In this document: piece after piece, positions 9,757 through 52,135 of the stretch
How positions within the stretch are numbered: the stretch's first letter is position 1
How the letters are laid out: every line of letters begins with the position of its first letter
Assembly: GCA_016748015.1 (NCBI GenBank)
Contig: JAAOMT010000771.1
Span: 4,443 to 68,442, forward strand
Source of the DNA: Geosiphon pyriformis uo1
Taxonomy: Eukaryota; Fungi; Glomeromycota
Length of the DNA: 64,000 bases
Reading direction: 5' to 3'
Made by a program: the position numbers and the translations under genes
The notes under the pieces: generated by a model
What the model was told of the DNA's origin: nothing
The model's database searches: none
What the model saw: only the letters and a program-made list of their open reading frames with translations

Positions 9757-12700
9757 AATACAGTCCAATCACTACCTAAATATATAGATTATCATAATTT
9801 AAATTAAGCATGACTCATGTTTTTTTTACACATAACCAGCCACTAGAACCAATTAAAGCAGCACTATACACCTAAATTTTCCACCACATGGATATTGCAC
9901 AGAAAGCCAAAATTTGATCTGATTAGACATGAATGCAACCCAAAACACACATAGATACCAACCCTAAAACTGAAATTCCGGATTACTCCAGTAGATTACA
10001 AAGAAGATAAACCAGACATTAAAGGAATAAATGATCCATCATGTAGCAAGAGATTATATTTTTTATAATAGGCTTTTAATTTAGTCACTGACAGCCAAAT
10101 AGCAGACCTGTGACTCTTAGCAAAATAAAGAATAAAATTGACAACCAATGTACCCCCATCAGAGTCAGTAATGGCCCAATGTGTCAACCACCCAACTTTT
10201 CAGCACAAAACCCTTAGCCAGCACTGTGTACAAATCCATAAAAGAAACAGCCTCATTCAGTGAATTAACAACTGCATTCTCATTGGCAAAAGTGTTCAAT
10301 AACACATTCCACTCCAAAGTAGTATTAAACAATAAAGTAGCTCTAATATTGACATCATAATCACAAGAGAAAATATGATCAGAATTCTCCACTAAACCAC
10401 ACTGAATACAGGTGACACTTGGATAATTCAGATTATACATTTTTTTTCTTTTGGCCACAGATAAACAATGATAAAACACTTTTATGAAGTATAACCAAAG
10501 TGTTGCTAACACAGTACTAGTGTAACCAGATCTGATTTTGTCATTAGGATGCCAAACACAAAAGGTTCTGGCTTTATCAAAATAGTTACTGAGATCTACA
10601 CTAATGACACTACCAACACATCTGGCCTTCCAACCAACAGAATAAACAGTATTGAATAATTTTTTGACAACATGACAAGTATTCTCAAAAACAGGTCTGC
10701 CTTCAAGAACAAAAAAGTGATAATATACCTCAATAGACAAAAAAGACTTAGAAGTGACAGCTGCATTAGCAAAGAAATCAGCACATTCATTTCCAACAAC
10801 ACCAAAATGGCCTTTGATCTTATTTCATGTAACTGACAAACCTTTTTTTGCAATAACATAGTGAATATGTTTCTTTTCAATCCAGCATTTATTGCGAAAG
10901 TCAGGACCAGTTATATCACTGGCAGATTTACATAAGTCCAACAAAGCTTGGCTGTTTATATACAAGTCAACCAATTAAGAAGTGGGTACACACTTTAAAG
11001 CAAGTGCAATGGCCTGTATTTCCACTAGAGTTGACAACAGCAATCCATTCACTTTAATCCTAACACTAGCATTCACATCTGGAAAATAGGTGGCAGCACT
11101 ACCATAAGCATGTAATGAACCCAAATTTTTGATGGAACCATCTGTGTAGATAGTTATAGAGCTCATCCCAGAATTCAGCAAACACTCACTAACATAATTA
11201 AAATCACAAGGAAAGTTGACAGAAATAGAATGAGAAAACAACATCACACTATTTGACAAGCCACCTTCAATGATAAATTTGATCAAAGAAGCAAACCAGA
11301 CAGGAACTGGGCCTTTAAAGTCCAGCTTCTTCCACCTGCGAAAAGTATTCTATGTAAAACACTTGTCATAACAGTCCAGAAGCTGGTTTGCAAACACCAC
11401 ACTGTATCTTTTAAGAGACTTTGCTATGCCCAAATAAGACTCAAAACTGAGCACATTCAAGACTGCAATACTATTTCTGGTCCGAAAAACATTAGACAGA
11501 TTACTGCCCAATAATAGGTTGCACAATTTGAGAGCACATGTTGTGCCAGCCAAAAAGCAATTTACAGGATTGACCAACAACTTAATCAGAAATTTAAGAG
11601 GGTGCCAGGGCATCCAGTTAGTGGCCTGCAATTTCATGGCTTTGTGTTTGAATAATTCACCAAGGATTTTATCAGCATTAGCAAATTTAACCAGGCCAGC
11701 CAGCAGATTCTCAGCCAATATTTGCTCAAAAATTTTTAAACCATATAACTCTGGATAATACAAAGCTTCATTTGGAAAATCCTTGGGCAGATTGGCCTTG
11801 AGTTTCAAATGCTTTCTCAATATTTTGTTTCACTTCTCATATACATTCTTGGAAATATAGTTGAACTGCAATCTATATCCAATTATGGACTGCAGAACAG
11901 CAGAAACCAAATATAGAAACTGCTTCTTAGTGATGACTTTTCTTAAAACCACATTTGTAAAAAACTTAATATTAGAATAAGCTTTGGTCAAACTTGGCTT
12001 AGACAGGCCATCTATAAAAAAAAAATTCCTAAGTACCAGTAGGACTCTTTTTTTTGGCAATAGAAATTTTAGAACCACTAATAGACAATGAAACCTCTTT
12101 AGCCTCTTGATTAATAGGAATAGCAACCATTTTGTTTGTGTTAATAGCAATGTTATTGATCAAAAAAAAATTACTTGCAATGTCTAAAATGTGCTGCGTA
12201 GCCGCCAGGTAGTTTCCAACCCAAATAGTATTATCTACAAAGGCACTAGCTGCAAAAAAAAAAGTTTTGTTACTCTTAGGATCAGCTCTACCAGTCCTAG
12301 TAAAAATTTTCAAATTCAATTTATATCTACACAATTGCTCATGTTTTTTGATCTCACAAAGCAGAGGATCATAGAAAATTTTCCACAGCAATAGTGAGAA
12401 AACTTTCTCTTGATCTAACTCATCATAAACAGTATATTCGTTAGTGAGTCCAAAGTCTGTCATTACTCAGTTGGTCTGACTATTGTGTATGTTCCCAAAA
12501 AATTTAATAAAATGGGGACACATCTTAATCTTAACTAAACTATTCCACAAATGGGGCCATCTGATTGAGTCATAAGCTTTTTGCATATCTTAAAGTATTA
12601 GCCACAGCTTCCTATTTTTTTTAAGTACATCCTCAATGATAAAGCTGATGGTAAAAATTGAAGTTTGAGTAGATATACCCTTTAAAACTAAGAAATTATT

Positions 12701-15700
12701 ACCACAAAGAACATCAAATTTACTGCATGCCAAAGATATCCTGTTAGAAAGAATCTTAGACAATATTTTTCTGGCTGTCTCAACTAAAGCTATAGATTTG
12801 GTATTGGTGAGTGTTCCCTTCCAGTCATATGGCTTCAGTATCATAGAGATCTAGGCTTGCCTCTATTGTAGAGGAACTGTACCCAATTCCAAACACACAT
12901 TGAGAATATTTAACAAACCACCCAGAATCTGAGCATCTCCATGCTTTCATAGCTTATTAAGAATACCAAAAATGCCACCAGCTTTCCCATCAGGCAGTCT
13001 TTTAAACACCAGGAGAAATTCATCTGATCCAATTACATTCATGACATTTGAGAATGCACTATTATTAACATAGTCCAAGGGAGCATATTGATTAGACCAA
13101 TGACCAGACAGAGAGATGGGAGCAATCTGTTTTCTTGTCCATTCTTTTATGATATTATTAACAGCAGATTTAACTTCCATGGGTTTTAAAATTAACTTAT
13201 TATTCACTATTAGATGGTTCAGCACTACTTTTTTAAATGGTCAGTTCAAAACACTTTTGATCATATGTCTTTTATTGGAGCTAAAGATTTTCATGTGCTT
13301 GTCTATTGCCTTTTTGATTGAAATGTTTTTGAACACTCTAGACTCATAATATTTGGACTTTTGATACAATTTTTTGACTTTTAATAGGTGTAGAAAAATG
13401 TTCTCCCTACTCTCACTATTATCAAACATTGTGCATGCTTTGGATGCCCCTTTATTATCAAGAATAGACCATATCTTAAAGAAGCAAACAGCTTTTGACT
13501 CCTAATCTGAGCTTAAACACTTCACCAACTTGGCCATCAACAATTCCAGCTTAAAAAACTTTAAAGACTGCTTATTTTTCAAACAATTAGACTTACTAAA
13601 CCAATTTCTAGAAAACACACTATCAGCTAAGCTTGTAATCACTTCTTTAAAAATCCCCCACATAGCATCCAAATTTTTAGTAACTTTTGCATCATTGAAC
13701 ATATCTATATATTTCAAGAACTTGTCTGATAAATGGTCTCTAAATTGTGTTTACTTATTAGTATTCGCATTCTTGATCTTGAATTTTTACTTATTCTTAT
13801 TAGCCTGCTTATGCTTACCATTAAGCCAGGCATCCAAGAGACCACCCAAACCAACTGAGACCAAAATGGCATTATAATTAATGTCAAAGAAATCAGAAAC
13901 AAGAATAACTTTGTGACCAGTCAATGCAGACGACAAACTCTCACTTACAAAAATATAGTCAATAATCTTCACAGCATCCTGAAAATTGCCCCAAGTAAAA
14001 GCTTTGATCAAAGAGTGTCCACTAAAAGAGTTAACTAACCCCAAATCCAAACAGAACTTAAAACTAACACTCTTCTTATATCCATTCTTATTGAAATTAC
14101 TGCCCAAAACCACAAATGTGGAGGTATTAGCAGCCTTAGCAATAAGAGAGTTGATTTTGCCAGCTTGGCCAAATCTGGTTTCAGCAGAAGCACTTGCATA
14201 TATGCCCAAAAACATTACTGACAACTTGCTCTTGAAAAAAAGCCAAACAGAAACAAGACAACCAGAAATCTTTTCAATTTTAGACACATAATATACAAGA
14301 GAATGTTCATAATGATTGCCACCCCAGTGCCAAGAAATTCTTTGTCCAAACCAGAAGAGAATATTCTCCCCATCAAACCTATTCATAATCTAAGGCCTAG
14401 TATTGGACCTCAACTTTGTTTCTGTAACAATAAAAACCATATTCCCAGAATCTACATGCCAACAAACAATATCTTCCTGCTTGGCAGGGACATTAATACC
14501 ACAAACATTGTATGTTGCAATTTTCCAAACCAGATTCATCATTGAGAATGATAAGCAACAAAAACCAAACCAGTATTGTCTATTTTGGCCGAGAGGCCCA
14601 TAACCATAATTGAAAAATTGTTTAGAGTTTCTTCTATTTTAAAGATAACCGAAGGATTAAAAACTGCCACTTCCACAATAGTCTCACCACCAGTGGCCAC
14701 ACCTGAACCCTTTTTCATTACTATATCCATCCCTTGATTCTGTGATAAAAGAGTCACCAATGGCTGACATCTAGGGCTAGGCTGAGAAATTATTGGTCCA
14801 GATAAGTCCAACCTCTTAGCCAACTTGTCAATATATTCTACGAAACTGGCAAGACTATGCTCAAGAGCAGCAAACTTATCATGCAATTCCATAGACACCA
14901 CCAGAATAGATTTTATCTCTGAGAAGGAACCAGAAATAGCTAAGTTATTGTGCATAGGAAGAGAAAGAAATAAAGACCCATCAACAATACTGGCCCATAA
15001 AACACTGCCAAAAGAAACAGAATAAGAGATTGAAACAGAGCATTTAGCATAAATGGAAGCCAGTCTGCTTTTATTATCATTCAACAATAACCTGTGAGTT
15101 GAGCCACCAGAAAAAACATTCTCATTCACAGAAAAGTCCAGCAAAGTGTGACCCAAGTTCTTATGCTTATCACACTTAGCAGAACTCAGGTAAGACCAAT
15201 GCAAATTGGCATTCTTTAAGACAGGTGTAGTTCCCATAACAGCATTAATTGAAGCAGCAGAGTCAAAACAAACAACAGCACACCTGGCCCAGGCATATAT
15301 AACAGGGTATTAATCGATAACATATGTTTTCCCACCCACAGAACCAATAAAATCTCAGATATTATAAGCATTAGTGCCCATTAGTAGTGTATAGAACAAA
15401 GCCTTATGTTGATTTTTTTTATCCCATAATTTCTTGTCTATATTAGTCTTGGCCACTCTCACAGTATCTTTCCTAATTAAGATGGATCATCTAGCTGCGA
15501 CTAAATCAGCCTAATCTGATTGGGCAAATTCAACTATAGCCTTTTGCCATAGTTCTATTAATTGTATTTTGATCAATATAACAGAACCAAATTCAGAAAG
15601 TGCAGTATGCACAGCCTCAGCTAATGTTTCAACTGGAATTTTTTTTATCACCACAGTTCAATCTGAGTGATTAGTTGATTTCTTGAGACTAGTGTTTACC

Positions 15701-16480
15701 AAAATATTCGCTGCTCTTGCCTTTTCTGTTGCTTGTGCCAAACTAGATTTAGAAATGAAGAAAGCATGGATGATTTCTGAGAATTTTGAGAGGGTAAAGG
15801 CCCTCTCAAAACCATTGACTTTTAAAAACAATTTTTTAATCACCATTAGCTTTTCATGAGAGGATTTCTCAACCACTTTATTCAAGTCAATATTCAAAGC
15901 AAAAGATTTCTTAATAGAAACAATAACCAAGTTCTTCAAGAGAGAAAAAAGTTCCAAGAAGACATCCAAAAGAACATCATCATTATCATTATTACGACCT
16001 GAGAAATCTATTTTCTCTAATGGCTTGCCCAATGCTTTTTTAGTTTTGATACCTGGCTTTTTAGGTGTCTGATTATAATTTTTATTAGCAATAATTCTAC
16101 TTTTACCATAGTCAAAGCTAGTTTCCTCTATTAGACATTCTTTCTCCATATCAATTCTTTCAGACTTAATGATATCACTAGTCTCAGAGCCTTATGAACG
16201 ACCACCTGGCATCTTAGTTAGAGCTCCTTTTTCACCAACACCCTCCTCCAAAGCAACACTCTTTCTCTTCTTTCTTAACAAAACAGGCTTGAAACCCCCA
16301 CCAGAACCAGATTCTTTAGTAATCTTCTTCATGATGATAATACTAGGGCCAACAGTGGCCTTAAAATCAAAAAACAGTTTGGTTTTATTGTACTGAATGT
16401 TGAAAAAACTTCTTTCAAAAAACTTTTGACTCTTTTTGGGAATTTGAGATGAACAAGAGAAAGAAGTTTTTTTAAACTCA
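9757..16480 (-). mobile_element. Full-length degenerate LINE: ORF1 (about 16330-14539) and ORF2 with APE endonuclease, RT, RNase H and Cys/His finger
   Basis: APE start WKIATYNV.GIN, IIDYIF; RT TKSIALVETARKILSKI, D...AYDS, AFVDNTIW; RNase H IYTDGS...EIQAIALAL...KIKGH...GNECAD; finger CIQCGLVENSDHIFSC. Many stops and frameshifts. Confidence 0.92.
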
Positions 16481-16879
16481 TTTATTAAGACTAAATTAAA
16501 TTTTAAATTATAAATAAATTTAATAAAATTAAAGTTTTTGTTTTTAATTTTAATTTTAGTTATTTGAAATTTGGTATTATAATTATTGTAAACAATAATT
16601 TAATTATATATATATACAAAATTTTAAAAATAAATTAATTATTATTATTATTTAAACAGTCTTTTAAATATAAATTTTTTGTTATTGTTTTATGATTAGA
16701 TATTAATATTTTTTTAGCTTAGAGAAATATAATTAATTTATAATTAAAACTATAAATAAATTTTTTTTGTTATTTTAGATGACTATTTTAATAAAAATAA
16801 ATTTGAAAAAATATTAATTTTAAAAAATGTTTTAATTTAGATTTGATTAATTTTATAATAAATAATATTACTTATAAAA

Positions 16880-17960
16880 TAATAATAATAAAATAATATT
16901 TAATATAAATAATAAATTAAATATTAAAAATTAGCAAATAATATGATATTAAAATTTTAAAAAACCAAAAAAGATTTTAAAAATTTTAATCATATTTTAA
17001 AAATATATAAAAATTATTAAAAATTCTAAATTTTTGTATTATAAAAATTTAGATAATAATAATAATTTTAAAAACAAAAAAAACATTAAATTATTAATTT
17101 ATTTAATTTAAAAGTTAATAAATTTAGTATTTAAAACAAAATTTTTATTTAATAAAAACACAATTATTATTTAAAATTAAATAATTTATTAAAATTATAT
17201 ATATATATAAATCATGATTTATCTTATTAATAATTATTTATTTTTAATATTAAACTTATTAAAACAATCAATATTAATAGTATTTATTTAAAAAATTTAA
17301 TAATATTAAAACAATAGCTTTTAATTATAATTATTAACAAAATATTAACTTTTTATTTATTTTTTTTGTATTATTAATTAATTAATTAATTTAAAAAAAT
17401 TTTAAAATAACAATATTAAAAATTGTTTAGTAATTAAATATAAAATTAACTTATTAATAATTAAATTATTTATTAAAAAAATATAAAATATTAAAATTAA
17501 CCAATTATTATACCTAAAAAATTTAATACTAAATACTGTTAATTATTATTACTTAAATCTTTGTTTATTATACAAAATACTTAATTACCAAAATTTTAAA
17601 TTTAATAAAATTCTTAATTTTATTAATTAATTAATTAATTAATTAATTATTTATAATATTTGGTGTTTTTTGTAAAATAAAATTTATAAAAAACAAAACA
17701 TAATTAGTAATTATTTAGCAAAAAAACAAATTTAAAATTTATAAAAATCAATTACTTGAAATTTATAAGATTATTATGTAAATACTTTTAAAAAATTTAA
17801 AATTAACAATTAGTTATTTTTTAAAAAAATTTAGTTATAATTTTTGCATAAACAAAAAAATAAAATACAGTTAAAAAAAATTTAATTCAAAATTCATAAT
17901 ACAGACTTTTATAAAACTTAAACAAAATATCAATTATTATTAATTATTAATTATAAGTAA
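16880..17960 (+). repeat. Extremely decayed LTR, PBS and gag start of the B/C Gypsy family
   Basis: 17200-17658 aligns by eye to the 3' half of LTR B (aatagcttttaattataattattaacaa...). It is followed by the decayed PBS tttggtgttttttgt at 17659 and a gag-start remnant. Left boundary approximate. Confidence 0.6.
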
Positions 17961-18099
17961 TACAATATTTAAATTATTATTATAAATATTAGTACCAATT
18001 TTTTAAAAAAAAAATCTTTATAAAAAATTTCTAAGATATTTTACTATTAAAATTATTTTATTATTATCTTCTATTAAAAATTATATTATTATCTATTAT

Positions 18100-19005
18100 A
18101 AAAACAGAAAAAAATACTTAAAAAAGAAAATTCTTCTCTTATCAATTCTCTGATTATGATAAAAATAAGAATTATTAAAAAAATAGCTCTTTTTTTCCTT
18201 TGTTTTTCTTAGTTATTTCTTTTAACTTATCTCTTTTTATTATAATAAAACTAGTGAACTTTTTTGCTAGTAGTTTTAGTTCAGATTTAGCTGGTTTGAA
18301 AATATATTTAAATATTAAGAAAAATCAAATACAGAGTATATACTTTTATAGTATGTCTTATAAAAAAATGAAAAAAGCTAATATAAATGTTAATATGATT
18401 AATTTTTCTGCTAATTTTTTAAGTTTTGAAGATATTAGTGTTTTTGATAAAAAATCTGTAATGTTCTAAGATAGCAAAGTTGGTAGCAAAGCCAGTAGTA
18501 TTAACTGTTTATTAGATATAAAAAATATAAGAAACATAATTGTTAAAGAAATTAGCTATATAAATTTAAATATTTTAGTGATTAATGAGAATATAAACAA
18601 TATTATATTGCAAAAAACTTGTACTTGAACATATGTGTTGGTTTAACTACCAAAAACTCTTTCATTTGTGGATTTAAGTAATGACAAAAACATTTTAATG
18701 TTTTTATTATTTAAGTTTAATAACTCTAAACAACTCTATTTGATTAGATTATATGTTTCGAAAAAATAGAGTTTTAATTTGCCAAAATTTTTTACATTAA
18801 ATATTGAGCTTTCTGCTGTACTTGGTAAATTTTTTGGTAATAAGTTAATAGCAATAAAAAAAATTTTTTATTTTTGAGAAAGTATTAACTTTCTTAAAAT
18901 TTTTTGGTATAATTAAATCATTTTTCACATCTGAGTTTAATTTAAAAAAGACTAAGAAGTTGGCAATTAGTAAAAAATTTTTAGTTAATAATGATATTAA
19001 AATGG
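18100..19005 (+). mobile_element. LINE copy 2, 5' part (5' UTR and ORF1 start); continues at 37866
   Basis: Homologous to ORF1 of the - strand LINE (FTLNIEL...KKIF...LVNND). Interrupted by element B. Confidence 0.8.
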
Positions 19006-19920
19006 TATTATTTATAGAAATTAAGAATTATAATGAGTAAATAAAATAGCCAATCAAAAATAGACATAGTAAAAAGAAATTCTAGAATTTTTTTAAAAAA
19101 TTGCAGAATCCCAGAATTTCAAAATTCTAGGATTCCTCTTGAAAAATTGCAAGATTCCAGAATTTCAGAATTCTAGAATTCTTTTCAAAAAATTGCAGAA
19201 TTCCAAAATTTCATAATTCTAGAATTTTTTTTAAAAAAATTGAAAAATTCCAAGAAATTTTATATAATATAAATTATATATATATAGTAAAAGTATTAAA
19301 AGCAAAAAAAACATTTAATATTATTTAAGTTAGAAATAATAAATTATTTTATACCCCTTTCTTTAAAAGATAGTTTTTTATAACTTAAAGTAAAATTACA
19401 TCAATATTAATAAAATTATTCAATTATTAGCTAAATCTATATTATTGTTATTTAATTAAAAAATATTAATCACTTTTTCTACTATTAATAACTTATGCTA
19501 ATAAACTCCAATATTTAACCACATTAAATCAATAGCTCTTAATTATGGCTATTAACAAGATATTAATTTTTTATTTTTATTTTTATTTTTTTATTTTATT
19601 TTTTTGTTGTTTACTAATTAATAAAAAAATTAAGTATTGAGTATTTAACATCAAAAATAACTGGTAAAAGATTTAAAAACAAAGATAGAAATTTAAAGAT
19701 AGCTTATCAGAAGAATATAATTGCCAAAATAAATTGGCCACCATGTTAAAAAAAAAATTCACAAAAAAAATCACTAATTGAATCTCTGTTCATTATATAA
19801 AAAACTTAACCAAAATTTTTAAATTTCAAAATTTTTAGAAATTACCAATATTATTAGCTATTAAACACCAAGTTACAAGTTTGTTATTTGTTTTAACACC
19901 TTAAATAATTATCTATAATA
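19006..19920 (+). repeat. 5' LTR of element B
   Basis: Direct repeat of 37014-37865, followed by the PBS. Confidence 0.9.
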
Positions 19921-22245
19921 TTTGGTGCACTCTGTGAGATATAATTTAACAAAAAACTAGCATTAATAATAACTATTTAGAAAAGTAGCAGACCAAAAAT
20001 CATAGAAAAAAATTATTTAGAATTTGTAAAATTTTTATTTCAATATTATCAAACTTATCTTGAACTGACAAGTAACTATTAGTCAACAAAATCAGCTTTT
20101 AACTTCTATGTTAATAAAAAAATTAAATTCTAATTGGAAAATCAAGAAAATCCAAAAGCTGCTCTTAAAAATTTTTACAATAAATTATTCTAAAGCACTA
20201 TGCTTTTACAAAATTATTTGTTTGTCTCACTAATTACAAAAATAAATTAAAAAATTAAAAATTACATTCAGCAAAAATTTATTATTACCTTTATAAACAA
20301 AGAAAAATTACAAATTTTAGCAAAAACACCAAAAAAAATACAACTATTTACTTGAAAAAAACCAAAGTTATTTTATCTATTTGTCCATTATACTATCATA
20401 TACCAGAAAGTATTATCTATATATTATCTAAATCCATATTATTATCAAATACAAAAACATCTTTATCCAGAGTATTATTCTAAAATAATCAAAAAAAAGC
20501 CAAATTATTAAGAATTTATAGCAATTTCTTTGAAGAATTTAAATTGTAATCAACAATACCATTAAAACTTTAATTACAAACAATTTATCAGCCTTTACAA
20601 TATTGCAAAAATTAAGAAAACTTTAATTATTTGCAGAATTAATCATATCTAATATTATTATTATCAACAAATTAACTATAACAACAAAAAACACATAATT
20701 GTCATTACTGTAGTAGACAAAAACATCTAAAAATAAATTGTAAGACCAGATTAAATAATCAATAATTAAAAAATTAATAATTGCCAGTTTTAAACTTCAA
20801 ATTACACTCTAAATTAAGAACAATATTAGTATTAGTCTTTTTATACTTCAATAATATAGCAACCAATATACTTACTTCCAGTCTATCAAACTTTAGCATC
20901 AGTAATATATCAATTACAGTCACAAATAATTTATTAACTTTAACAAATTTAAGCACCATCTTAGAATACTGTGTCAACATTAAATAAAAACCAAAGACTA
21001 AAAATTACTTATATACAACAGAATTAAAGATTAGTGATAGTTATATACTAACTAATTTTCAACTTATTAAACCAGTTATTAGGATCACATCCAAAAAATT
21101 CAGGAAGTAAGTACACCCAAAACCTGAATTCTCAGAACTATTTAAGTTTTCTAGCCACTTCAACAAACAATTCATTCAATAATTTAGAAATCCAGAAAAT
21201 ATTTACCAATAATATTCTACTTACTATTATCACAGAAGACAAATTGCTTGCTACAATATTTTCTTTTAAATTAGAAAAACTGGTAACAACATCTCTATTC
21301 AGTAAAGTTATTCTTAACACAAAACTTATTACAGCCATGTATATAAATGTTAAAATTAATGACCAATCTATTAAACTAATTTTTAATAATGGTTTAATAA
21401 GCAGTATTATTACATATCAAATTATAGACCAATTAGATTGTTGAGTTAATTATGCTGCCAATGCCAAAATTATTATTATTAATAAAACTATTAAGATTTC
21501 TATTAGCAAAATCAACAACTTCTCTTTTAAAATCAATGGTATTATTACACTCATCAAAATTTTTGTCATAAAAGCTATATAATATTAAGCTTTTATTAGT
21601 AATAACTGGCTGTTCAAGACCAATAATATACTTAATTAAACCACATAAAAGTTCTAATTTAGTTAAAATGATTAGCATACTTAAGTACCAATTATTTGCA
21701 ATTACTTTAAGACAACCCAATTACAACTACTAATTGAATTTGAGAAAAAAATAAACAAATCTATCTAAAAAGCCTATTAAGTTTCATAGACTAATAACAA
21801 CCACAATGAATTACTATTAATACTCTTTTGAGACAATAAAAGCAAAAGCAAAGAAGAAAACAAACCACAAAATGCCACTACAGAAAAATCAGCTAACAGT
21901 TAGCATGTATTATACTTATTAAACACAAGAAAAAAACTGCCATATATTTTACTTAAATATATCAATTATAATAAAAAGCTTTTATTTATAAAAGCTTGAA
22001 TTGTGCCAAAAAAAGACTACTAAATACATATCTGTTATTATTATAAACCATGTCACAGAAAATACTTCAAGTACTCAAAATAACAAGAAAAGTGGGACAA
22101 TAAACCATGTCTTATTTATAGAAAAACTTTACTTGATAAAATGTGGAATAATATTCTTAATTAAAAAAAACATGTGACATTTTGTGTCAATATACAATCT
22201 TTATAAGTAACTAGATAAACTAAAGAATACTATTTAATGCTATGT

Positions 22246-23222
22246 TGTTACCAAATGAAATTAAAGATATTATTTAGCATAAAACTATCTTATAATTCTT
22301 ATCATTAATTAGCATATATTATTATTTTAAATTATCACTTATTACATTAGCAAAAATATCTGAAATTATTATTTAATTAATAACCCAAATTGTACACAAC
22401 ACAAATGTAACCTAATTGCAATGATTAATCATGCAATACTCTAAACTATATAACATTCAAAAGTTCGCTGAAATTTATAAAAATTTGCCGAAATAATTAA
22501 TAGTTCACCAAAATATCTAATAGTTTGCAGAAATAACTTGTAGTTCACCAAAATGTATCTTTAGTTCAGCGAAATTGTAGAAAATAGCAAAGTTCAAGTT
22601 CATAAAATAGTGTTACGACAAGTTGTATAAAAGAAGAGCTTCTCTCTTTGAGAAAATGTATCTTACTTTAGATTTATTACTTAGAACCATTCCTACACAC
22701 ACAAAAAGAAATAAATATCAAATAATTCAAAAAACCAAATTTTTTAATTATTGCACTTGGAAAATCCTCAAAACCCAACTAAAGTTTTGAAATTGATTAG
22801 CTACCAATTTCAATAAGCTGTTAGTAACTTCAGGCCTAAATTGAAAATGTTTCCCTTGACAGAATTCTATTTCTTTTACATCTTTTTATTTTCTTTTTAT
22901 TTTCTTACTATAATTATTAGGGTAGCCTACAGACAAGATTTCTGTAGAAGAGTTGACTTTCACAGCAAAGTAACTATACATTTTAGTGAGCTTTCAGATG
23001 AGCAATTCCTAAGAAAGAGTTGACGTTTACTACAACGTAACTATATAAAGTAACTGGCACAAAATTGGCCATTCCACTTATAAGCCCAGCAATTCAAATT
23101 ATAGGAGATAATTTGAAGATAAATTCAGTTATTAAAGATTCAACTACTTTTAGAAAATGTAAATTCACAACAAACAGCCATTAGCAACATTTAAAAAAAG
23201 AGACCAAAAATCTCTGGTAATA
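22246..23222 (+). repeat. 5' LTR of element A
   Basis: Direct repeat of 31148-32124, with internal gttcgccgaaat-type repeats. Confidence 0.95.
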
Positions 23223-23234: not shown

Positions 23235-23267
23235 CTACAGAAATAATACAGCAATAACAACTTCAAA

Positions 23268-25020
23268 GTGGCAATCACACCAAACACAACTACTCTAGAG
23301 TATTACCAATCAATTTACACCTACTACAAGCAAAGATTCAACATTCCAGACGGAATTGAAGTTGTCAAGAAATCAGTATATCAATACATTGAAAACCGCA
23401 TCAACAATTATCTTTTTGGAAATTACAATATCTCAGAAGTTAGAAGCAACTTTTACAATAATTTAGCACACTATTCACAGTTGGGAACTGAAGATCTTAA
23501 CAGTAAAACACTTGCCACTTACTTTCATGAACTTAATTTTAACATTATCAAATACTGTAAAGAAACATATCCAGTGCAGTCTCAATACACTATTGATTTT
23601 GAATCGGAAACAGAAACAAACAACAAAGGCAAAAACAAATTGAAACAATACTCAAGAACCATCCCAAATACTCCAACACTACCAAAAACAACTGCCAATT
23701 ATTTACAAACATCTGAACAAGAAACCAGTTCAAAACTTCCACTTACTATTACATCTTTTTCAGCTTTACTTGCACAAACACAAATGCCTAATTCACCCTT
23801 GAATCGATTTGCAAGACCAGAAGATTTTACAGCACTCAGAAGTCCCATAAAACAACAAGAACCCCTTCAAACTAGTTCCAATCTCCTTGATTTTCTAGCT
23901 AAAAATCAAAGTGAACACTTTGAGACAGCAGCAAACAAAGAAAACAACTCTGAAATAACTGAAGAAGAATTAATAGACAGTGAAAAGGAAAAAGATGAAA
24001 TAACAACATATATTACAAAAATTCCTGAATTCAATGGAGAAGATATTGAGACCAGTCTCCAAGAATGGCTCAACCAAGTTACTAAAGCTGGAAATGCAAA
24101 TGGATAGAATGCTGCCAGAATGTTAAGAACAATTCCCTACTTTCTCAAAGGAACAGCAGGAGAATGGTTTGAAAACTTGGCCACCCTATTCAATGATTGG
24201 AATGCTTTCAAAGCAGCCTTCCTTGAACAGTTCACTGACAATAATACCTCCATCACCCTTCGCAAGCATTTTCGAAATATCAAACAAGAACCCTCCAAAT
24301 CTGTTATGACTTATATTGGGAAATTCAACAAACTTTTCAAATGAATTCGCCAACTCGAAACAAATGATTATTATTCCAATGTTCAAATCTTGGATCAATT
24401 TATCGCTGGTCTAAAAGATAAACTAATTAAAAAGGTTCGCCCACATGTGCCAGAAGATTTAAACTCTGCCATACAGCATGCGAAAAGATACGAAATGGCC
24501 ATGGAAGAGGCCAACCACACAAAACTTGTAAATTTGGCAATTGGAGAAACCAGCTCAGCAGCCGAGGAAAAAATTGACCAACTCACAAAAAAGGTTGAAA
24601 ACTATTTCACCAATCAACAACAACAGCAACCCCAAAAATATCAACCATCTCAAAGACAAAATCAAAATAACTTTGCACCACTTTCCAATAACCAGCCTCA
24701 GAATTGCCATTACTGTGGAATTTCTGGCCACTGGAAAAGAGATTGCAGAAAGCTACAACAAGACCAACAAAATAGAAGTAATCAATACTACCCTCCACTA
24801 CAGCAATTTTATTATCAACCGCCACCACCAGCTTACTATCCACCAAGACCCCAATACTAAAATAACTATTATCAGCCTGCCCCACAGCCAATTCCACAGC
24901 AATACCAATAACCGCTCACACAATATTATCAAGTACCTGCTCAAAAACTGCTTACACAAAATCAATTCACACCACAAAACTGATACCAAGTAAACAACAA
25001 TAGAATCAGTTCAAACAACC
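23268..25020 (+). pseudogene. gag: gag of element A (retrotransposon gag core and CCHC knuckle)
   Basis: IPEFNGE...EWL, FLKGTAGEWF, FIAGL, CHYCGISGHWKRDC. In-frame stops. Confidence 0.9.
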
Positions 25021-25289
25021 AATTGGTTCCCCGAAATACTACTCAACCAAGACCCAACCACTACCACACTCAACCCAGTTATTTAACAATGCCAGAAGAA
25101 CAGGATTTTTACCATACTGCACTCTCGGAAGGTAGAGCTGCAGCACAACAACAACAAAACCCTTCCTATACTCTCACCACAATTCCACCAGCCAGAATTG
25201 CTAAAAACGCTAACCTTTCAGATATATTCTCTTTTGAGTTCGAAGCAAATGAATCACCATTTCTGCTTAGCAATGCAGCCACCAATGAA

Positions 25290-25680
25290 CAAAAAGCAAT
25301 CATGGCCATGTACACTGAAGCCAAAGTCAAAAGAAAGACAATTCACTTGATCCTAAACAGTGGATCCGCCAGAAGCATTATCATCTACCAGTTAATACAA
25401 CAGTTGAAAAAAAATGTCGACCGACCAGCTCAAACAGTAATCGTCACTGCCAATGGCATGAAAAAGACCCCAGTAGGAGAAATTGACAATTTTCCATTCA
25501 CTTTTGATGGAATTACCATTCCAGTCAAAGTTCTTGTAATGAATGCACCCCAGTACCAAGCTCTCATCGGAAATGATTGGCTTCAAAAAGCCAATGCTAA
25601 TCTGAATTGGGAAACACAAGAGTTAACAATCTCCTACCAAGGACAACATGCCCAGGTACCTGCCACTTGTGGTACATTCA
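25290..25680 (+). pseudogene. Aspartic protease of element A
   Basis: LILNSGS (from D-S-G) ... ALIGNDWL. Confidence 0.9.
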
Positions 25681-26613
25681 ACAAATCCTCTGAAAAAGCC
25701 CCAGCTTTTGAATTCGAACCGGAAGAGGAAAAACCCCTTATTGAAACATTCATGGCTTTTGGATCAATGTCCAACTGGGCCGATGAAACAGAACAAGAAC
25801 ATTTTACCCCACACACTAAACCTGAAACCTCTGGATGAAATATCTCTTACTCAAAACCCAAACCAAAGAAACAACGCCCCTATATTCCCCTTAAATTTAA
25901 GGACTGCCACAAGAAACTATTGTCAATGGGAGCCTGCATTTCACCTGAAGAAGAATATGAGAATCATACTTGTTATTACTGTAAGGCTTGCCACAGAGAA
26001 TGATGGGGCCATCTAATAAAAAGGAGCAGAAAATGGGACAACACCCCTTGTTTGACTTGTGGAGATATGCTACCGAAAGAATACAATTGGATTGATGTAG
26101 TCATGAGAGGAGGAGTTTGCAATCAAACCTGCCAATATGCTTTATCAATTTCAGAAAAAGTAAAAAGAGGAACACCCTTTAATGCAGCATACAACAGTGC
26201 TTTCAACAAACTTTATCACTACTCCCATGATGCTGAGATGATTTTTGACCTAGCAATGGCATTAATTAATGGAGCTACCAAAAAAGATGTTCGCCAAATG
26301 AAGGAAGCAGAATATATTGAATACACCATAAAATTAGCTGAATTCGATTATGAAGATGAAGTAGAAGTCTACCACCAAATTGTAAGTCATATCTACCCAA
26401 CTCAAAAAGCTCAAATTCAGCAATTAGAGCAAATAAACATTAGGCTATGTGAAGAATGCATTATGCCTTGCGATGAACAGTAGTGTCTTGAATGCTATGC
26501 TCTTAGTATTCCCTTGCCCAGCAAAAATGATGAGAACAAAATTGAATTTGGAGAACCTGAAGCAATGGAAGAAAGTGAAACAACACCTATCTACCTTATT
26601 GAAAATCAGCCTG

Positions 26614-27047
26614 CCTTACAACTTAAATACTTCAACAACAACGGACAAAGAATAAAACCCAAAAAAGCACACGAAATTGATGCTGGATATGACCTAAGAT
26701 ATCCAAACAAGGATATTCTTGTTCTCAAACCCAAATCCCTCACAAAAATCAACTTAAAAATTGCACTCAAAATCTTGCCAGGAGCAATGGTTCAAATCAC
26801 CTCCCGGTCCTTTCTGGCAAGCAAAAGAATCAATGTCAGAGGAGGAATAATTGATGCTGGATATACTGGAGACATTACAGTGATGCTTCAAAACAAAACT
26901 AACAAACCATTCAAGATCAAACATGCTGAAAAAATTGCCCAAGCTATTTACCTACCCTTAATCAACATTTCGGGTTTGCAACTAATCGATCAAAGAAAAC
27001 AATTAGGAAAAAGCGATAGAAGAACCCAAGGTTTTGGTTCAACTGGA
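26614..27047 (+). pseudogene. dut: dUTPase domain within pol of element A
   Basis: All five trimeric dUTPase motifs: AGYDL, SRS, GIIDAGYTG, KIAQ, RRTQGFGSTG. Confidence 0.95.
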
Positions 27048-27599
27048 CGATTCACAGTTCCAGTTAATATAGCTTTTAACACACAGAACAAATCTCACCA
27101 GATTCTCAGACTTCTACAACCAATTACCATCTCACCCTTTGGAGAACATCTGAAAATCTACACCTGCCCAAAGCCAACAACCACACAACAAATTTTTGAG
27201 TCCAATGAACAAATCTACTTAGAACATAATATTTCAATCTCAAACATTTATATTCCAGAAGGAACAAAGAAAGTCCGAGTTACTTTTTACAATCCCAATA
27301 ATTACCTCATAATTTTATTAAATAATTTAGAAATTGGAGTTATTCACAGTAATATATTTTAACAAGAATTACCCCAAACAGTTCCTGATTTCTCTGAAAT
27401 TATTGGACATTCAATACCAAAAATTAACCCAAACCCCAGCTCTGAAAACTATCATGTTGTCATAGAAAAACTATCTTGAATCAACATGGGACAACTTGAA
27501 CCACAACAACAGACCCAGCTCAAAGAGCTAATTGTAGAATTTGCCAATATCTTTGCTGAAAACAACAATGACTTAGAAAGAACCAATTTGGTCCAACAC

Positions 27600-28889
27600 C
27601 AAATTTATAAAGGAGATGCCAAACCAAGAAGACAACAAGCATATTGAGTTGCTCCAGAAAGCCACCAATTCATCCGAGAAGAAGTACAACAAATGCTTAA
27701 CAATGGGCTCATCCAACCCTTCATGAGTCTTTGGGCTTTACTTGTAGTGCTAGTTAAAAAAAAAAAGAGAAAGATCCGATTTTGTGTTGACTATCAACAA
27801 CTCAACAGTGTTACAATTGGAGATGCCTACTCCCTTCCCCGGATTGATGACATGTTAGATGCCCTTGGAAAATCCAAATACTTTTCAACACTAGATTTAG
27901 AAAGCGGTTACTAACAAGTTGCTATGGATCCCAAAGATCGCCCCAAAACAGCATTCACTATCCAAGGCAAAAATTACGAGTTCAATGTAATGCCTTTTGG
28001 ATTATGCAATGCACCAGCAACATTTCAGAGATTAATGGATGTTGTGTACTAAAGACTTCTTTGGAAGTCAGTAGTTGTTTATCTTGACAATACTGATGTT
28101 TATTTTCTATCATTCGAATTACACTTAAAACATCTACGAGAAGTTTTTCAATGATTATGAAAAGCAGGACTAAAACTCAATATCAAAAAATACTACTTTG
28201 GAAAAACAAGCCTGACCTTCCTTGGTCATATTGTTAGTAAAGATAGAATTAAACCAGACCCTGGAAAAATCAGCGTTGTTAAAAATTTCAAAACTCTTCG
28301 AAACACTACAGAATTAAGAGGATTTATAGGATTAGCATCCTACTATCGGAAGTTTATCAAAGGATTCTCTGAAATTGCAAAACTCCTCAACCAGCTTACC
28401 ACCAAAAATGTTGAATATAAATGGACTACCGAACACCAAAAAGCTTTTGAAATTCTCAAGAAAAAACTGACAACAGCTCCAATTCTTGCCTACCCGGATT
28501 TCAGCAACCAATTTTGACTAGCTATAGATGCTTTATATACTGTCTTTGGTGCCATCTTATCACAACTAGATGACAACGGAAATGAGCGAGTAATTGCTTA
28601 TGCTAACAAAACATTAAAACCAGCTGAGAAAAACTACCCTGCCACAAAACTAGAAACAGCAGCTGTAATTTGGGCTCTACACCACTTCAATCTTTATCTC
28701 AGGCCTAAAGAATTCAATATTATTACTGATAATATTGGACTTAAATGGCTTCAGAACAAAAATACTCAGCTGAATGCAAAACAAACCCGATGGACAGGAT
28801 TTCTAGCAAACTATCGATACATAGTACATCACAAACCAGAAAAACTCCACACCAATGTTAACTGTCTCTCCAAAATGAGACAAGATTAA
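27600..28889 (+). pseudogene. pol: Reverse transcriptase and RNase H of element A
   Basis: RFCVDY, LPRIDD, LDLESGY, MPFGLCNAPATF, YLDN (from YLDD); RNase H ends NCLSKMRQD-TAA. Confidence 0.95.
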
Positions 28890-28952
28890 AAAAAAAAAAA
28901 AAAAACACAAAAACCAACACTCAACTTAACCAACCAAAAGAGCCAACAAACA

Positions 28953-30338
28953 ATGAATTCAGAAAACTACAATGATCTCAAACAATATTTGAAAACATTA
29001 ACAATCCCAACAGATTGGTCTCCAAATGAAAAACATCGACTACAACAACAAGCCAAACAATATTTTCTACACAACAACATTATTTATCATCGAAATTTCA
29101 AAAACCCAGACAAATCACTTAGATTAATACAAGAACAGGAAAAAAAGACTATATTATACAACATGTACTTAGATCCTTTATCAGCCCACTTCGGAAAAAA
29201 CAGCACCACCCAAAAAACACTAGAATACTACTTTTGGTTTCAAATGAAAAAAGACATTTACGAATATGTCGAATCTTGTAATAGTTGTCAAAAAAGAGAA
29301 GGAACTTGCTTTACAGAACCTTTAAACCCAATCAAAGTTGAACAGTCTTTTGACAGAGTTGGTATCAATTAAGTTGGACCACTACTTATTACAAACCAAG
29401 AAAACTGCTATATTGCAGTAACTGTAGACTATCTCACCAAATGGCCTGAAGCCAGAGCCATTCAACGGGCAGATGCAAAATCAGTAGCAAACTTCATTTA
29501 CGAAGACATCATTTGTAGACATGGATGCCCAATAGAACTTTTATCTAATCAAGGAACACATTTTGTGAACAATTTAATTCAGAAAATTTGTGGACAATTT
29601 AATATCAAAAGACCATTATCTTCACCCTACCATCTACAAACAAATGGACTGGTAGAACAGTTCAACAGAATATTGTGTGAATCATTAGCCAAAGTTTCAA
29701 CCGATTTTGAGCAAGAATGGGATCTCTTTATTTCATCAGTGTTACTAGTGTATAGGACACTAAAACAAGATACCACAAAACACACACCATTTGATTTAAC
29801 TTACAGAAGGACGGCAATGTTACTAATTAGTTTCACAGTGGAAACATACCCAGCACAACCAATCAATGAAAACAATTTTCAGGAAACGCTTCAACAAAGA
29901 GCCTACACTCTGCTTAGCACATTGGAAGGAAAACAACAAATAGCAGCCACCCATATTGAACACTCCCAAGCTCAACAAAAAGAACAGCATGATGAAAAAT
30001 TGTCTCCAGTCACCAATAAATTTAAAATTGGAAACAAAGTTCTCTTACACAGAACTAAAGCTGAAAAACAATAGTGTGGAAAATTTGAAAATAAATGGGA
30101 TGGACTATTTTTTATCCATGAAGTTTTAGGCAACGGATTATACAAGCTAAGACTTGATGACAAAATTCTAACAAAAGTTGCATATGGAGATCGTTTGAAA
30201 CACTATAATTCCAGAAACAATCCTGAACCATTAATTCCACAAATTGGTACACATTCCTCTTTAATTAATCCCAAAGACATTCTCCGAAATTTAGAACCAA
30301 TAGTTGTCATTGAACAGCCTCCCAACTTGAACACTTAA
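28953..30338 (+). pseudogene. Integrase of element A (own ATG; HHCC, DDE and C-terminal SH3-like part; no chromodomain)
   Basis: AHFG...CNSC, GIN*VGP, LSNQGTHF, NGLVEQFN, FKIGNKVLL. Confidence 0.93.
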
Positions 30339-30459: not shown

Positions 30460-31179
30460 ATGACTATTTCTCAAAACATTCAACAATTATCTCAAAAACT
30501 AATGTTAGCTTTAAAAACAATACCTGAATTATCCATTACTGTTACTGGAAACCACATTAATTATACTCAAACAGAAGTAGTTACAAATTTAGCCCCAAAT
30601 TCATGAAAATATTACCCATATAAAAAGAACACAAGAAATTATACTGGAATTCACCTGCCAGAACTTTTAAAGCTTGCTTTAAGAGAAAATCTAATGCTCA
30701 TTCCGATTAGTATTCCACCAAATGCTACAATTCAACAAAGACTTCAACTGTGTCTCAATAAGGAAAACACTGAATATTCTCCAATCTATAGATATTTTCA
30801 CATTAGAAAAACACTCTACGAACGGAAACTGGAACTTACAACAGCAAACCTCACAAAAGAAGCTATTCAAAAACAACTCTACAACAAATTCAAGACAACA
30901 GCTGGATCAACAAACAGTCACTACAGGCTCAGAGCTGCTCTTAGACTTTATGACCTATTCCACACCTGTGAAAACATACTACAAAACCCAATTTTTCAAC
31001 CTTTGAAGATTCAATACATTGGAAAGCTCACAGAACTGAAATTTCAACAATTTTCAAACCAAATTTCTTCAATAATTTTGGATTATTATCTGGAAATAAC
31101 AAACAGTACTTGGACTTTGACAGAGCTCAGTCTTAAGGAGGAGGTTATGTTACCAGACGAAATTAGAGATATCATTTAG
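30460..31179 (+). pseudogene. Additional 3' ORF (ORF3) of element A, about 240 aa, unknown function
   Basis: ATG at 30460 is in frame with ORF 30694-31179; the only interruption is a single TGA at 30604. Reads through the PPT into the 3' LTR. Confidence 0.75.
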
Positions 31180-32124
31180 CATGAAACTATCTTATAATTC
31201 TTATCATTAATTAGCATATATTATTGTTTCAAATTATTACTTATTATATTAGCAAAAATGTCTGAAATTATTATTTAATTAATAACCCAAATTGTACACA
31301 ACACAAATGTAATCTAATTGCGATAATCAATCATGCAATACTCCGAACTATATAACATTCAAAAGTTCGCCGAAATTTATAGAAATTCGCCGAAATAATT
31401 GATAGTTCACCAAAATATCTAATAATTTGCAAAAATAACTTGTAGTTCGCCAAAATATATCTTTAATTCAGTGAAATTGTAAAAAATAGCAAAGTTCAAG
31501 TTTATAAAATAGTGTTATGACAAGTTGTATAAAAGAAGAGCTTCTCTCTTCGAGAAAATATATCTTACTTTAAATTTATCACTTAGAACCATTCCTATAC
31601 ACACAAAAAAAAATAAATATCAAATAATTCAAAAAACCAAATTCTTTAATTATTGCACTTGGAAAATTCTTAAAACTCAACTAAAGTTTTGAAATTGATT
31701 AGCTACCAATTTCAATAAGCTGTTAGTGACTCTAAGTTTGGATTGAAAACGTTTTTCTTGACAGAATTCTATTTCTTTTACATCTTTTTATTTTTTTTTT
31801 ATTTTCTTACTATAATCATTAGGGTAGCCTACAGACAAGATTTTTGTAGAAGAGTTGACTTTCACAGCAAAGTAACTATACATTTTAGTGAGCTTCCAGA
31901 TGAGCAATTCCTAAGAAAGAGTTGACATTTACTACAATGTAACTACATAAAGTAACTGGCATGGAATTGGCCATTCCACTTATAAGTCTAGCAATTCAAA
32001 TTATAGAAGATAATTTAAAAATAAATTCAGTTATTGGAGGTTCAACCACATCCAGAAAACGTGAATTCACAGCAAACAAGCATCGACAACATTTAAGAAA
32101 AGAGACCAAAAACCTTCAGTAATA
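31148..32124 (+). repeat. 3' LTR of element A
   Basis: Direct repeat of 22246-23222, preceded by the PPT. Confidence 0.95.
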
Positions 32125-35100
32125 ATGTAAAACTGAACACTTTTATGCTCAAATGATTATTCACATAATAAAAATGAGATTTAAGAATAACAAATATCAA
32201 AATCAAAAGCACTTTATCCAGTAAAATACTTATAATTAAAAATAACTCACCAGAATCTGTCAAAATTATTTTCATTCCAACTTAAATGTATTTATTAACA
32301 TTTTGAATAATCTAGAACAATTTTATAAATATTACTAAGATTTAGCACTTACTTAAGAAGAGCAAGAACAGTGTTTAGAACAATTAAATACTAAACTATA
32401 TAAACATTGTCTAATTTTCAGTGACTTCAAATATTATAACAATTGTGACTTTATTTTTAATTTACTACTGTGCATGATTTATTTAATTTCCAAAGAGAAA
32501 GAATCAATTAGCAAGTGCATTTTAGAATTGGAATTGATATTTAATCATAATTCAGACTCTAATAATAATAACAACAACAATTCTAACTTTATTCACAATA
32601 GCAATAACAACAATAATGATTTAAACCCCAATTACAACCCTGAACAATATATAGTACTCCCAGATTTTTTAAAGAAACAGAAACTTAAATGGTTCAGCAA
32701 TAATAATGAAAGTATTATGTCAAAATATACACATAATACTGATAGAGAATTTGATTTAAGATATTTGAAAAAAACTGCTATCAGATTAGAACCATATTCA
32801 CATATTAGTATAGATCTAAAAATAATATTGGAAATTTTAACAACAATAATAATAAACCAATCAATCTTTAAATTTAGTTTAGCAAAAAAAGGGATTAATA
32901 TCAAAAAAGAAATAATTAACACAGAATATGTAGAAAATATCATTGCAATACTATAAAACAAATTAAAAAAAACATATACTATTAAACTAAATAAAAAAAT
33001 AATACTGGTAATATTTAATACTTTTAGTAAAAATAGCTCAGTTAGTGTTAGTAAAAACAAAAAAAAAGTTAAGAATAATAGCAAAAAAGAAAAAAAAATT
33101 TGGATTAACAAGTAAAATAGAAGTACCAGTTAATATAACAAAAAAAAATTATTAATAAAGAAAAAATTATTTCTACTATTCAATCAATTTCTATTCTATT
33201 ATATAATTAATATATATTAATTATAGAAAAAAAATAAAGAATCAATCTCAAATTTTTGAAATGAAACCAACTATTTATAAGTCAGGAAAGATTAGTATTA
33301 CCAATCTTTATATACTAACCAAGAATTATAAACATATTAAAATTCTAATACACAATATAATTAGAGACCCAATAAAAATACCAAGTAGAATTACTATTGA
33401 ATACATAAACACTGAAGTTAAAAATCAATTACCAATCACCATTTCAAACTTTCTGTAATTTTGTAGATATATAAATATTACATTACAAAAAATATACAGA
33501 CAAGAAGAATATTATTTGCTACAACCAAAACAATTAGAGCAAATAAATTTGGAAAACTTAGATTCATTTCAATATATGCAACTCAAATTACTATTCAACA
33601 ATTTTACTAATATTTTTGTCAGTAAAAATAAATTTAAAAAAACTAATATTATCTAGCATCAAATTAAAACAAAGAATACAATACTAATTAAGCAATAAGC
33701 ATACTGAGTACTACCAGCCAATCATAAAATTATTTGACATAAAATCAACAGAATATTAGACAATAGATTAATTTAATTATCAATAAATCTATAATTATTG
33801 CCAGTAATACTTGTTTAGAAAAAATAAAAAGATTCATTTTTGTGTAGATTACAAAAAACTTAACAGTATAACTTGTAAAGATAGTTATTCAACTTTATAA
33901 ATTTAAAAGTTATTTAATGCTTTTAGAGAAAAGAAATAGTTTTTAACATTGGACTTAGATAGTAGTTATTAACAAATAGCTATAAATTTGTCTGACAAAG
34001 AAAAAACTATATTTACAACTAGATAAAAAAATTTTGAATTTGATATTATGCTTTTTGGCTTAACCAATGCTTCAGTCACTTTCTAACAGCTAATAAAAAT
34101 TGTCTATATTAGACTGCTATAGAAATTAGTAATAGTTTACTTAAATGACATCAATATGTTCTCAAAAACATTTAATAATTATCTCCATTATTTTCAATAA
34201 GTGTTTAAAAGATTAAAAAAAGCAGGACTAAAATTAAATACTACCAAGTATTTTTTTGAGAAAGCTAAGCTCAAGTTTTTGAGACATATTATAAGCAAAA
34301 ATAACATCAAAACAGATCCAGACAAAATTGAAATAGTTAAAAACTTTCTAGTACTAACAAATTTAACAGAGCTAAAAACATTCTTAAGATTTGCTAAATA
34401 CTACTGCTGTTTTATCCAAAACTTTTCTAAACTGTCTTAATTACTTTACTAGCTCCAAGTAAAGAATATTAAATATAAATAAATTAAAATACAACAAAAA
34501 ACCTTTGACATTTTAAGACAAAAGCTTATTTAAGCTCTAGTATTAATTTATTTAAATTATAACAAACTATTTATTATTACTACTAATGTATTTGGTTAAA
34601 CATTAAAAACCATATTGTTGGAAAAAAAAGCTAATAGATGAGAACATTCAGTAGCATATATTAACCAAAATTTGAGTTTAGCTAAAAAGAATTATGAAAC
34701 TTCAGTATTAAAATATTTAACTATCTATTATACTGTTAATAAATAGAAAAAATACTTAAGTCAAAAGTTTAATATGTATACTAATTACAAAAAATTGATA
34801 TTAATTTAAAAATAAAAATTTGGAAACAATTATTATATAAGATGAAAAATAGAACTATTATTATTTAATTATATTATATATTATAATAAAAAAAAAATTG
34901 GAAATACTAATGACTTGTTATAAATAAGATAAATCTAAAAACATTTTAACCCAAAAATATAACAAAAAATAAACACACAAAAATACTAACAACTTCAATA
35001 TTATATTAGTACTTAACAGTTTAAAGAGAAATTATTTCAAAAAAAACAAAACCACATAAAACAACAATTAAAATATTTTATTACTCATTACAATATATTA

Positions 35101-37013: not shown

Positions 37014-37865
37014 TATTACTCATAAAAATTAGGAATTATAATAAATAAATAAAATAGCCAATTAGAAATAGGCCTAATAAAAAAAAATTTCAGAATTCCT
37101 TTAAAAAATTACAGGATTCCAGAATTTCAGAATTTTTTTTGAGAAATTGCAGAATTCCAAAATCCCAGAATTCCAGAATTTTTTTTAAAAGAATTGAAAA
37201 ATTTTAAATAATTTTATAAAATATAAATTATGTATATTTAATAAGAATATTAAAAGCAGAAAAAACATTTGATAATATTCAAGTCAAAAATAATAAATTA
37301 TTCTATATCCCTCTTTTGAAAAGATAATTTTCTATGACTTAAAGTAGAATTACATTAATATTAATAAAATTATCCAATTATTATCCAAATCTATGTTATT
37401 ATTATTTGATTAAAAAATATCAATTATTTTCTTATTATTAATAACTTATGTTGATAAACTCTAATACTTAATTATATTAGATCAATAACTCTTGATCATG
37501 ACTATTAACAAGATACTAATTTTTTTTATTTTTTTTTATTTTATTTTTTTGTTGCTTACTAATTGATAAAAAAATTAAGTGCTAAGTATTTGACATTAAA
37601 AATAGCCTAATAAAAACTCTGGAAATAAGAATAGAAATTTAAGAATAGCTTACTAAAAGAGCATAACTGTAAGAATAAACTGGCTATCATGCTAAAAAAA
37701 AATTTACAGAAAAAACTATCAATTGAATCTCTGTTTATTATACAAAAGACTTAACCAAAACTTTTAGACTTCAAAATTTTCAGAAATTACCAATATTTTC
37801 AATTATTAAGCACCAAGTTATAGGTTTGTTATTTGTTTTAATATCTCAAATAATTACATGTAATA
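37014..37865 (+). repeat. 3' LTR of element B
   Basis: Direct repeat of 19006-19920; LINE ORF1 resumes immediately after. Confidence 0.9.
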
Positions 37866-52045: not shown

Positions 52046-52135
52046 AATATGAAATATAAATTTATCATCCAATAACTGAATTAAATTTTAGAATTAAGTA
52101 GTAAAAAATTGATAATTTTTAGCTTGTTATTTATG

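Follow-up and report, generated by a model that had tools for sequence, protein, structure and literature searches.

Directional C→T decay of transposons within and outside CpG sites in the fungus Geosiphon pyriformis, and its probable link to cytosine methylation

Strand-coordinated runs of changes are a feature of the Neurospora type of RIP. In Zymoseptoria tritici, Dim2 raises mitotic mutation tenfold, with more than 95% of the changes being C→T and located at CpA in repeats (PMC8016269). A RIP-like signal outside Dikarya was obtained from dinucleotide indices in Zoophthora radicans (Zoopagomycota; PMC11105155). Arbuscular mycorrhizal (AM) fungi have been stated to possess DNMT1, DNMT5, DIM-2 and RID (PMC8298701, citing another paper), which is at odds with a 2026 review whose available part lists RID for Ascomycota only (PMC13297926). 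The transposable elements (TEs) of Rhizophagus irregularis are CG-methylated (bioRxiv 2021.03.30.436303), and those of Phycomyces carry both CG and CHH 5mC at low levels (3.4% for CG and 0.9% for CHH; PMC11258239). The accessible text of the bioRxiv study states that no RIP signatures were detected in Gigaspora margarita or in Mucoromycotina. All seven Glomeromycetes (7/7) were scored 'no_rip' in a survey of 1,239 genomes (PMC12543289), and the 12 supplements covered, out of 19, yielded no entry for Geosiphon. The main text of PMC11952901 contains no mention of RIP, CpG or deamination, and the available parts of PMC7862722 and PMC12344493 add nothing further on Geosiphon. In the literature covered, with subscription papers mostly outside its scope, the pattern described below was found unreported for Geosiphon or AM fungi.

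The window, i.e. the whole stretch of DNA analysed, comprises 64,000 nucleotides of contig JAAOMT010000771.1 of Geosiphon pyriformis, a glomeromycete. It carries an element, here called A, nested within an older element B1. The LTRs of element A (5′ at 22246–23222 and 3′ at 31148–32124, plus strand) are 977 bp each, align without gaps and have the target-site duplication ATGT on both flanks (22242–22245 and 32125–32128, plus strand); the duplication could derive from a decayed ACGT. The gag-pol (23247–30338, plus strand) occupies one frame over 2363 codons, which is broken by 19 internal stops but by no frameshift. Its zinc knuckle, protease, dUTPase, RNase H and integrase were recognised by Pfam, and the reverse transcriptase region was assigned by homology, not by Pfam. 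With the LTRs, the duplication and the gag-PR-RT-RH-IN order all present, element A is a Ty3/gypsy LTR retrotransposon, and its closest integrase relatives are Geosiphon pyriformis proteins. The dUTPase (26484–27362; PF00692, E 6e-21) lies between protease and reverse transcriptase; linking it to uracil or deamination pressure would be a guess. Both LTRs terminate in TA (23221, 32123), while most family contigs have a penultimate C (among the matches listed), so the terminal CA has been lost at both LTR ends.

The internal stops were all predicted to arise from CAA, CGA and TGG codons, and in element A this has exceptions. The stop at 28887 (region 28887–28960), located after RNase H, is separated by a few codons at most from a stop that the intact relatives L002 and L004 carry; it is therefore probably natural, the integrase being a separate ORF. 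The stop at 29370 aligns with L/I of homologues and requires a transversion, and several of the 19 in-frame stops have no assignable source codon.

The two LTRs of element A differ at 85 of 977 sites, namely by 44 C/T, 39 G/A, one A/T and one C/G difference, with no indels. For the first 380 bp, the counts of the original prediction are exact (29 differences, all transitions; nine in CpG, eight in TCA, five in TCT, four in ACA and three in other contexts). The term 'transition-only' suits this part of the LTR; over the full length, transitions account for 83 of the 85 differences (97.6%), the remaining two being transversions. Two or fewer transversions among 85 differences would be expected with P=1e-12 at a Ts:Tv of 2 and with P=3e-5 at a Ts:Tv of 5. 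For the 62 non-CpG transitions and two transversions, P=8e-4 at a Ts:Tv of 5. Thus, the ordinary transition bias is far exceeded, even when CpG sites are removed. As it is the two LTRs of one element that differ, the changes arose after insertion.

Polarity was assigned by the majority letter among LTR-family contigs of a public sequencing run, possibly the window's own source, and the summed contig depths yield rough majorities only; two further runs contributed next to nothing. The family majority was C or G at 32 of 34 polarised transition sites (among the matches listed), 17 of these coming from the first contig comparison (again among the matches listed) and 15 from the second. Since the other family copies carry C/G at these sites, the direction of change is C→T, and the ancestral C/G that had been assumed is borne out. 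The two exceptions are a CpG with 55% T and site 23184. In the second comparison, whose stretch includes four sites without a resolved majority letter, the 26 positions at which the family majority departs from the 3′ LTR show transitions only, with T>C or A>G in 23 cases. An assembly error behind the LTR differences is unlikely, as they are directional and free of indels, and C>T/G>A variants also occur across the family contigs (174 places against 40 transversion places per 1101 bases, among the matches listed).

Spatial clustering along the LTR is not significant (P=0.12). The last 170 bp are enriched in differences, which are densest in the last 100 bp (23130–23222 and 32030–32124), where both transversions and the one site of reverse polarity (23184) are also found. 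Some differences in this part may be of mixed ancestry, and another subfamily may have contributed sequence there by gene conversion. The results hold over LTR positions 1–600 and 1–800, with a weaker contrast of CpG and non-CpG (P=0.17 and 0.03, respectively).

Both LTRs and both strands are equally affected: of the 82 scored sites, 44 have their T/A letter in the 5′ LTR and 38 in the 3′ LTR, and 44 C/T differences stand against 39 G/A. Per site and lineage, the changes amount to 20/76 in CG (0.26), 18/100 in CC (0.18), 27/216 in CA (0.125) and 17/204 in CT (0.08). CpG is thereby hit about twofold more often than other contexts (0.26 against 0.12, non-CpG 62/520; P=0.002). The changes had been described as lying mostly outside CpG, which is true of the raw numbers (62 of the 82 scored, 76%); per site, CpG ranks first. 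Enrichment after normalisation is nevertheless not confined to CpG, since non-CpG sites are strongly hit (C→T 62/520 per site and lineage versus 2 transversions per 1954). Hidden CpG as the origin of the non-CpG events was considered and rejected, because 35 of the 82 events fall in CC or CT and because 53 stops of the soil family described below are located at TGG.

The older repeats of the window have decayed further. They include B1 (LTRs at 19000–19920 and 37008–37865), into which element A was inserted, and its sister element B2, also older than A (41727–42645 and 50795–51762), all four LTRs lying on the plus strand. The LTR pair of B1 shows 121 transitions and 13 transversions, and that of B2 120 and 21. 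The non-CpG C→T rate relative to transversions is 141-fold in A, 68-fold in B1 and 33-fold in B2; both clock-like decay and an early burst fit this series, as the value of A is based on two transversions. The five-copy alignment of B-family LTRs was saturated and gave no polarisation. A dead repeat at 10165–16400 (minus strand), LINE-like by reading of its ORFs, has a CpG o/e of 0.09, and its four tested ORFs gave no Pfam hit. A more decayed copy of it at 38635–41711 (plus strand) has 21% GC and has lost all CpG. Overall, the old repeats of the window have 20–23% GC, a CpG o/e of 0.00–0.09 and a GpC o/e of 1.3–1.6 (0.98 for GpC in the kinase gene). In the annotated Geosiphon protein P0166, a kinase paralogue is fused to a stretch with 45% identity to the product of the LINE-like repeat's first ORF (15490–16392); here the annotation probably continues into a repeat. 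The 11 kb at 52000–63000 contain no ORFs of 100 aa and have 18% GC, a GpC o/e of 1.9 and a CpG o/e of 0.26; these are possibly very old decayed repeats. An assembly gap of 756 N lies at 4170–4925.

A second fungus is represented by a family from soil metagenomes. The metagenome scan yielded 80 loci, of which 46 belong to one Ty3 family with ~42–63% identity to the integrase of element A. One near-duplicate and three high-transversion copies were dropped, leaving 42 rows, and the rates were the same with the three copies kept. One dead Ty3 copy adjoins an intron-containing Plavaka-type gene (L041:2208–5168; PF18759 relatives), whose product is 89% identical to a Rhizophagus irregularis protein. 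From this flanking gene, the host is likely a Glomeraceae (Rhizophagus-like) fungus; the flank is a single one, and more than one strain or species may be involved. In the 42 copies, C>T amounts to 0.159 per site, T>C to 0.015 and each transversion class to less than 0.007. As much as 86% of C>T falls outside CpG (CG 0.30, CC 0.18, CA 0.15, CT 0.13), and the strands are balanced (split P=0.60). Of 152 stops, which mark copies as dead, 148 derive from CAA, CAG, CGA or TGG; 53 of these fall at TGG codons, in which no CpG can occur. Synonymous C>T exceeds the rest (0.29 versus 0.11), so a part of it was inherited from active lineages. The C>T load varies among copies (0.11–0.21, P=0.002), which could reflect different ages or episodic action. 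A 5′ G is least affected here as well, and a 5′ T or pyrimidine is not favoured (P=0.95). Relaxed-context decay is thus common to both fungi, the TC lean being present only in Geosiphon. Other pairs from the metagenomes had a lower Ts:Tv (2.3 for L074/L079 and 5.5 for L002/L004, among the matches listed).

The C→T changes are post-insertional, directional, strand-balanced and unclustered, and occur in all contexts. The explanation that appears moderately probable is methylation of repeats at cytosines of every context, followed by deamination. After insertion of a transposon, the host would methylate its cytosines on both strands, CpG and non-CpG alike, by the predicted DNMT1/DNMT5 and a DIM-2-type enzyme. 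The 5mC would then deaminate to T and escape repair, likely during vegetative growth. The changes fill reading frames with stops, and the copies die and decay to ~20% GC, a RIP-like outcome. The methylation mark, the enzymes involved, the life-cycle stage at which they act and the spontaneous or enzyme-assisted nature of the deamination are inferred. The near-total loss of CpG in older copies (0.00–0.09, against 0.98 in the kinase exon) fits a twofold CpG excess combined with general loss of C. Several points weigh against methylation-linked decay. Passive deamination would need non-CG methylation of TEs at about half the CG level, and non-CG levels in Phycomyces are low. The 5′-pyrimidine bias of Geosiphon is unexplained by it and is missing in the second fungus. 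Moreover, the kinase control discussed below is indirect, and the spread of load among the soil copies also fits episodic action.

A repeat-directed, relaxed-context C→T mutator of Glomeromycotina, catalysed by RID or DIM-2 and possibly triggered by pairing during cryptic sex or a parasexual phase, would leave no CpA footprint and be missed by index and k-mer surveys. It is regarded as a tentative and rather unlikely possibility. If true, it would imply that a RIP-type defence predates the Dikarya–Mucoromycota split.

True RIP with a relaxed context, in which pairing reveals duplicated DNA and a RID-type enzyme mutates it in bursts at a premeiotic or parasexual stage, is unlikely. It would account for the near-pure, indel-free C:G→T:A change tied to repeats, for the similar C→T decay of a dead kinase-family fragment and for the overdispersed loads of the soil copies, and RID has been reported for the AM fungal clade (PMC8298701). 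However, CpA is not preferred over CpC and CpT (27/216 versus 35/304, P=0.78), TpA/ApT is 0.73 in the gag-pol of element A, and the composite RIP index is negative in this element. Strand runs are absent from the LTRs of element A (runs tests P=0.68 and 0.16) and from the 42 soil copies (pooled z=-1.3), although several rounds could blur them. Neighbouring events within 10 bp in the element A LTRs lie on the same strand in 27 of 51 cases, i.e. there are no strand-coordinated clusters either, and the suggested check for strand clustering was thus negative. In addition, two paralogues of the host kinase share 98% identity with the exon in the window, yet have open reading frames and differences that are partly of the transversion type; the dead fragment and a partial paralogue with mostly transition-compatible differences blur this contrast. 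Because the CpA and strand-run tests fail, the decay in Geosiphon is not filed as RIP.

A genome-wide C→T mutation bias, due for example to weak repair of uracil or T:G, with genes kept by selection only, is quite improbable. Intergenic DNA near the kinase gene falls below 10% GC in places, and the dead gene fragment decays like the repeats, both as such a bias would predict. Extremely AT-rich tracts of 8–14% GC (1–900, 7700–10000 and 16400–18000) flank the kinase gene and the LINE-like relic. The intact protein-kinase gene (5432–7494, minus strand), used as the control, weighs against this bias. Its last exon, identical over 348 residues to a deposited Geosiphon pyriformis protein, has 39% GC and a CpG o/e of 0.98; the fourfold sites of the gene have 36% GC, and its introns (delimited by eye) have 24–43% GC and retain some CpG. 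Only 113 of 209 amino-acid differences between the kinase and seven paralogue segments (54%) are compatible with transitions, versus 93 of 107 among Geosiphon integrase copies (P=2e-9); in some integrase proteins from other sources this fraction also reaches 0.9. The control is indirect, as coding sites are under selection and the nearby intergenic DNA is very AT-rich. In one partial kinase paralogue, 29 of 35 differences are transition-compatible. The dead kinase-family fragment (upstream DNA and first exon; 58377–58991, plus strand) contains stops and has strongly lost C/G; with the intact gene as reference, C>T/G>A outnumber T>C/A>G by 61 to 15. Given this fragment, the partial paralogue and the AT-rich intergenic DNA, the process seems to track silenced or dead repeated DNA rather than TEs as such, with selection confounding the kinase comparison.

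An AID/APOBEC-like deaminase with TC preference, editing single-stranded DNA or cDNA of the elements, is a very unlikely explanation. Outside CpG, changes follow T in 34/178, C in 12/82, A in 12/166 and G in 4/94 cases, with T as the top context, G as protective and pyrimidine favoured over purine (46/260 versus 16/260, P=7e-5). Four of five additional, older repeat pairs in the window share this preference (P between 7e-14 and 0.02; 0.08 in the fifth), with the caveat of saturation. The presence of a dUTPase in element A may also be counted in favour of such an enzyme. Editing of cDNA, however, predicts changes of one strand and identical LTRs, whereas the changes observed affect both strands and set the two LTRs apart. 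TCC (10/15) is hit above TCA (14/37) and TCT (12/42), ACA reaches 7/35 and CCG 6/7. CpG comes first, strand-coordinated clusters are missing, and the TC bias is lacking in the second fungus. What stands of the predicted RIP-like or TCW-deaminase defence is therefore a repeat-associated, directional C→T process beyond CpG decay in a non-Dikarya fungus; the CpA preference and strand runs of Neurospora-type RIP and the TCW specificity and strand inequality of a deaminase were not found.

Geosiphon grows at the soil surface, and UV damage at dipyrimidines acting on methylated repeats would agree with the 5′-pyrimidine preference and with six CC→TT pairs within one LTR, but it is highly improbable, as the tandem excess over opposite-LTR pairs (six versus three) does not reach significance (P=0.25), a purine precedes 16 of the 62 non-CpG events and the soil family decays with no 5′-pyrimidine bias.

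The decay also affects dating. The LTRs of element A have a K2P distance of 0.095, while three times their transversion distance is 0.006. As anticipated, the LTR age is inflated, by about 15-fold with a range of roughly 4 to more than 100 (Poisson limits on two transversions). If the decay is general, dating of TEs by Kimura landscapes or by LTR divergence (as in PMC11952901) would yield overestimated ages, and AM fungi would have an overlooked mutagenic defence against TEs, which may explain their AT-rich repeat fraction. A C→T process with no CpA preference is poorly detected by RIP surveys, yet lethal to the elements. The pattern also offers a test of the DIM-2 and RID genes that have been reported from AM fungi and, should it prove burst-like, of cryptic sex.

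The decay in Geosiphon resembles the Dim2 mutator of Zymoseptoria in its C→T nature (more than 95% there, 97.6% transitions here), its location in repeats, its mostly non-CpG sites and the inactivation of TEs. The Zymoseptoria mutator needs no sexual cycle, which is counted as a further likeness. Unlike in Zymoseptoria, where CpA takes more than 98% of the changes and CpG escapes them (PMC8016269), CpG is hit first in Geosiphon and CC, CA and CT are all affected. Dependence on Dim2 was shown there by experiment (PMC8016269), whereas the Geosiphon pattern is known from sequence alone. With the RIP of Neurospora crassa and other Pezizomycotina (RID, DIM-2), it shares C:G→T:A changes on both strands of repeats, stops at Q, R and W codons and AT-rich relics; it differs in the missing CpA preference and strand runs, the negative index, the apparent survival of near-identical paralogues and its occurrence outside Ascomycota. 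Methylation-linked CpG decay of the DNMT1/DNMT5 type, as for the TEs of R. irregularis and Phycomyces, is similar in that CpG decays fastest, is nearly gone in old copies and is kept in the gene. It differs in that 76% (LTR pair) and 86% (soil family) of the events here are non-CpG, at about half the CpG rate. Compared with Zoophthora radicans, the claim for Geosiphon is based on polarised substitutions, and the index signal is absent from the young element. The signal is real, strong and polarised. It would represent a novel form of repeat mutagenesis tied to methylation, in fungi that surveys recorded as free of RIP.
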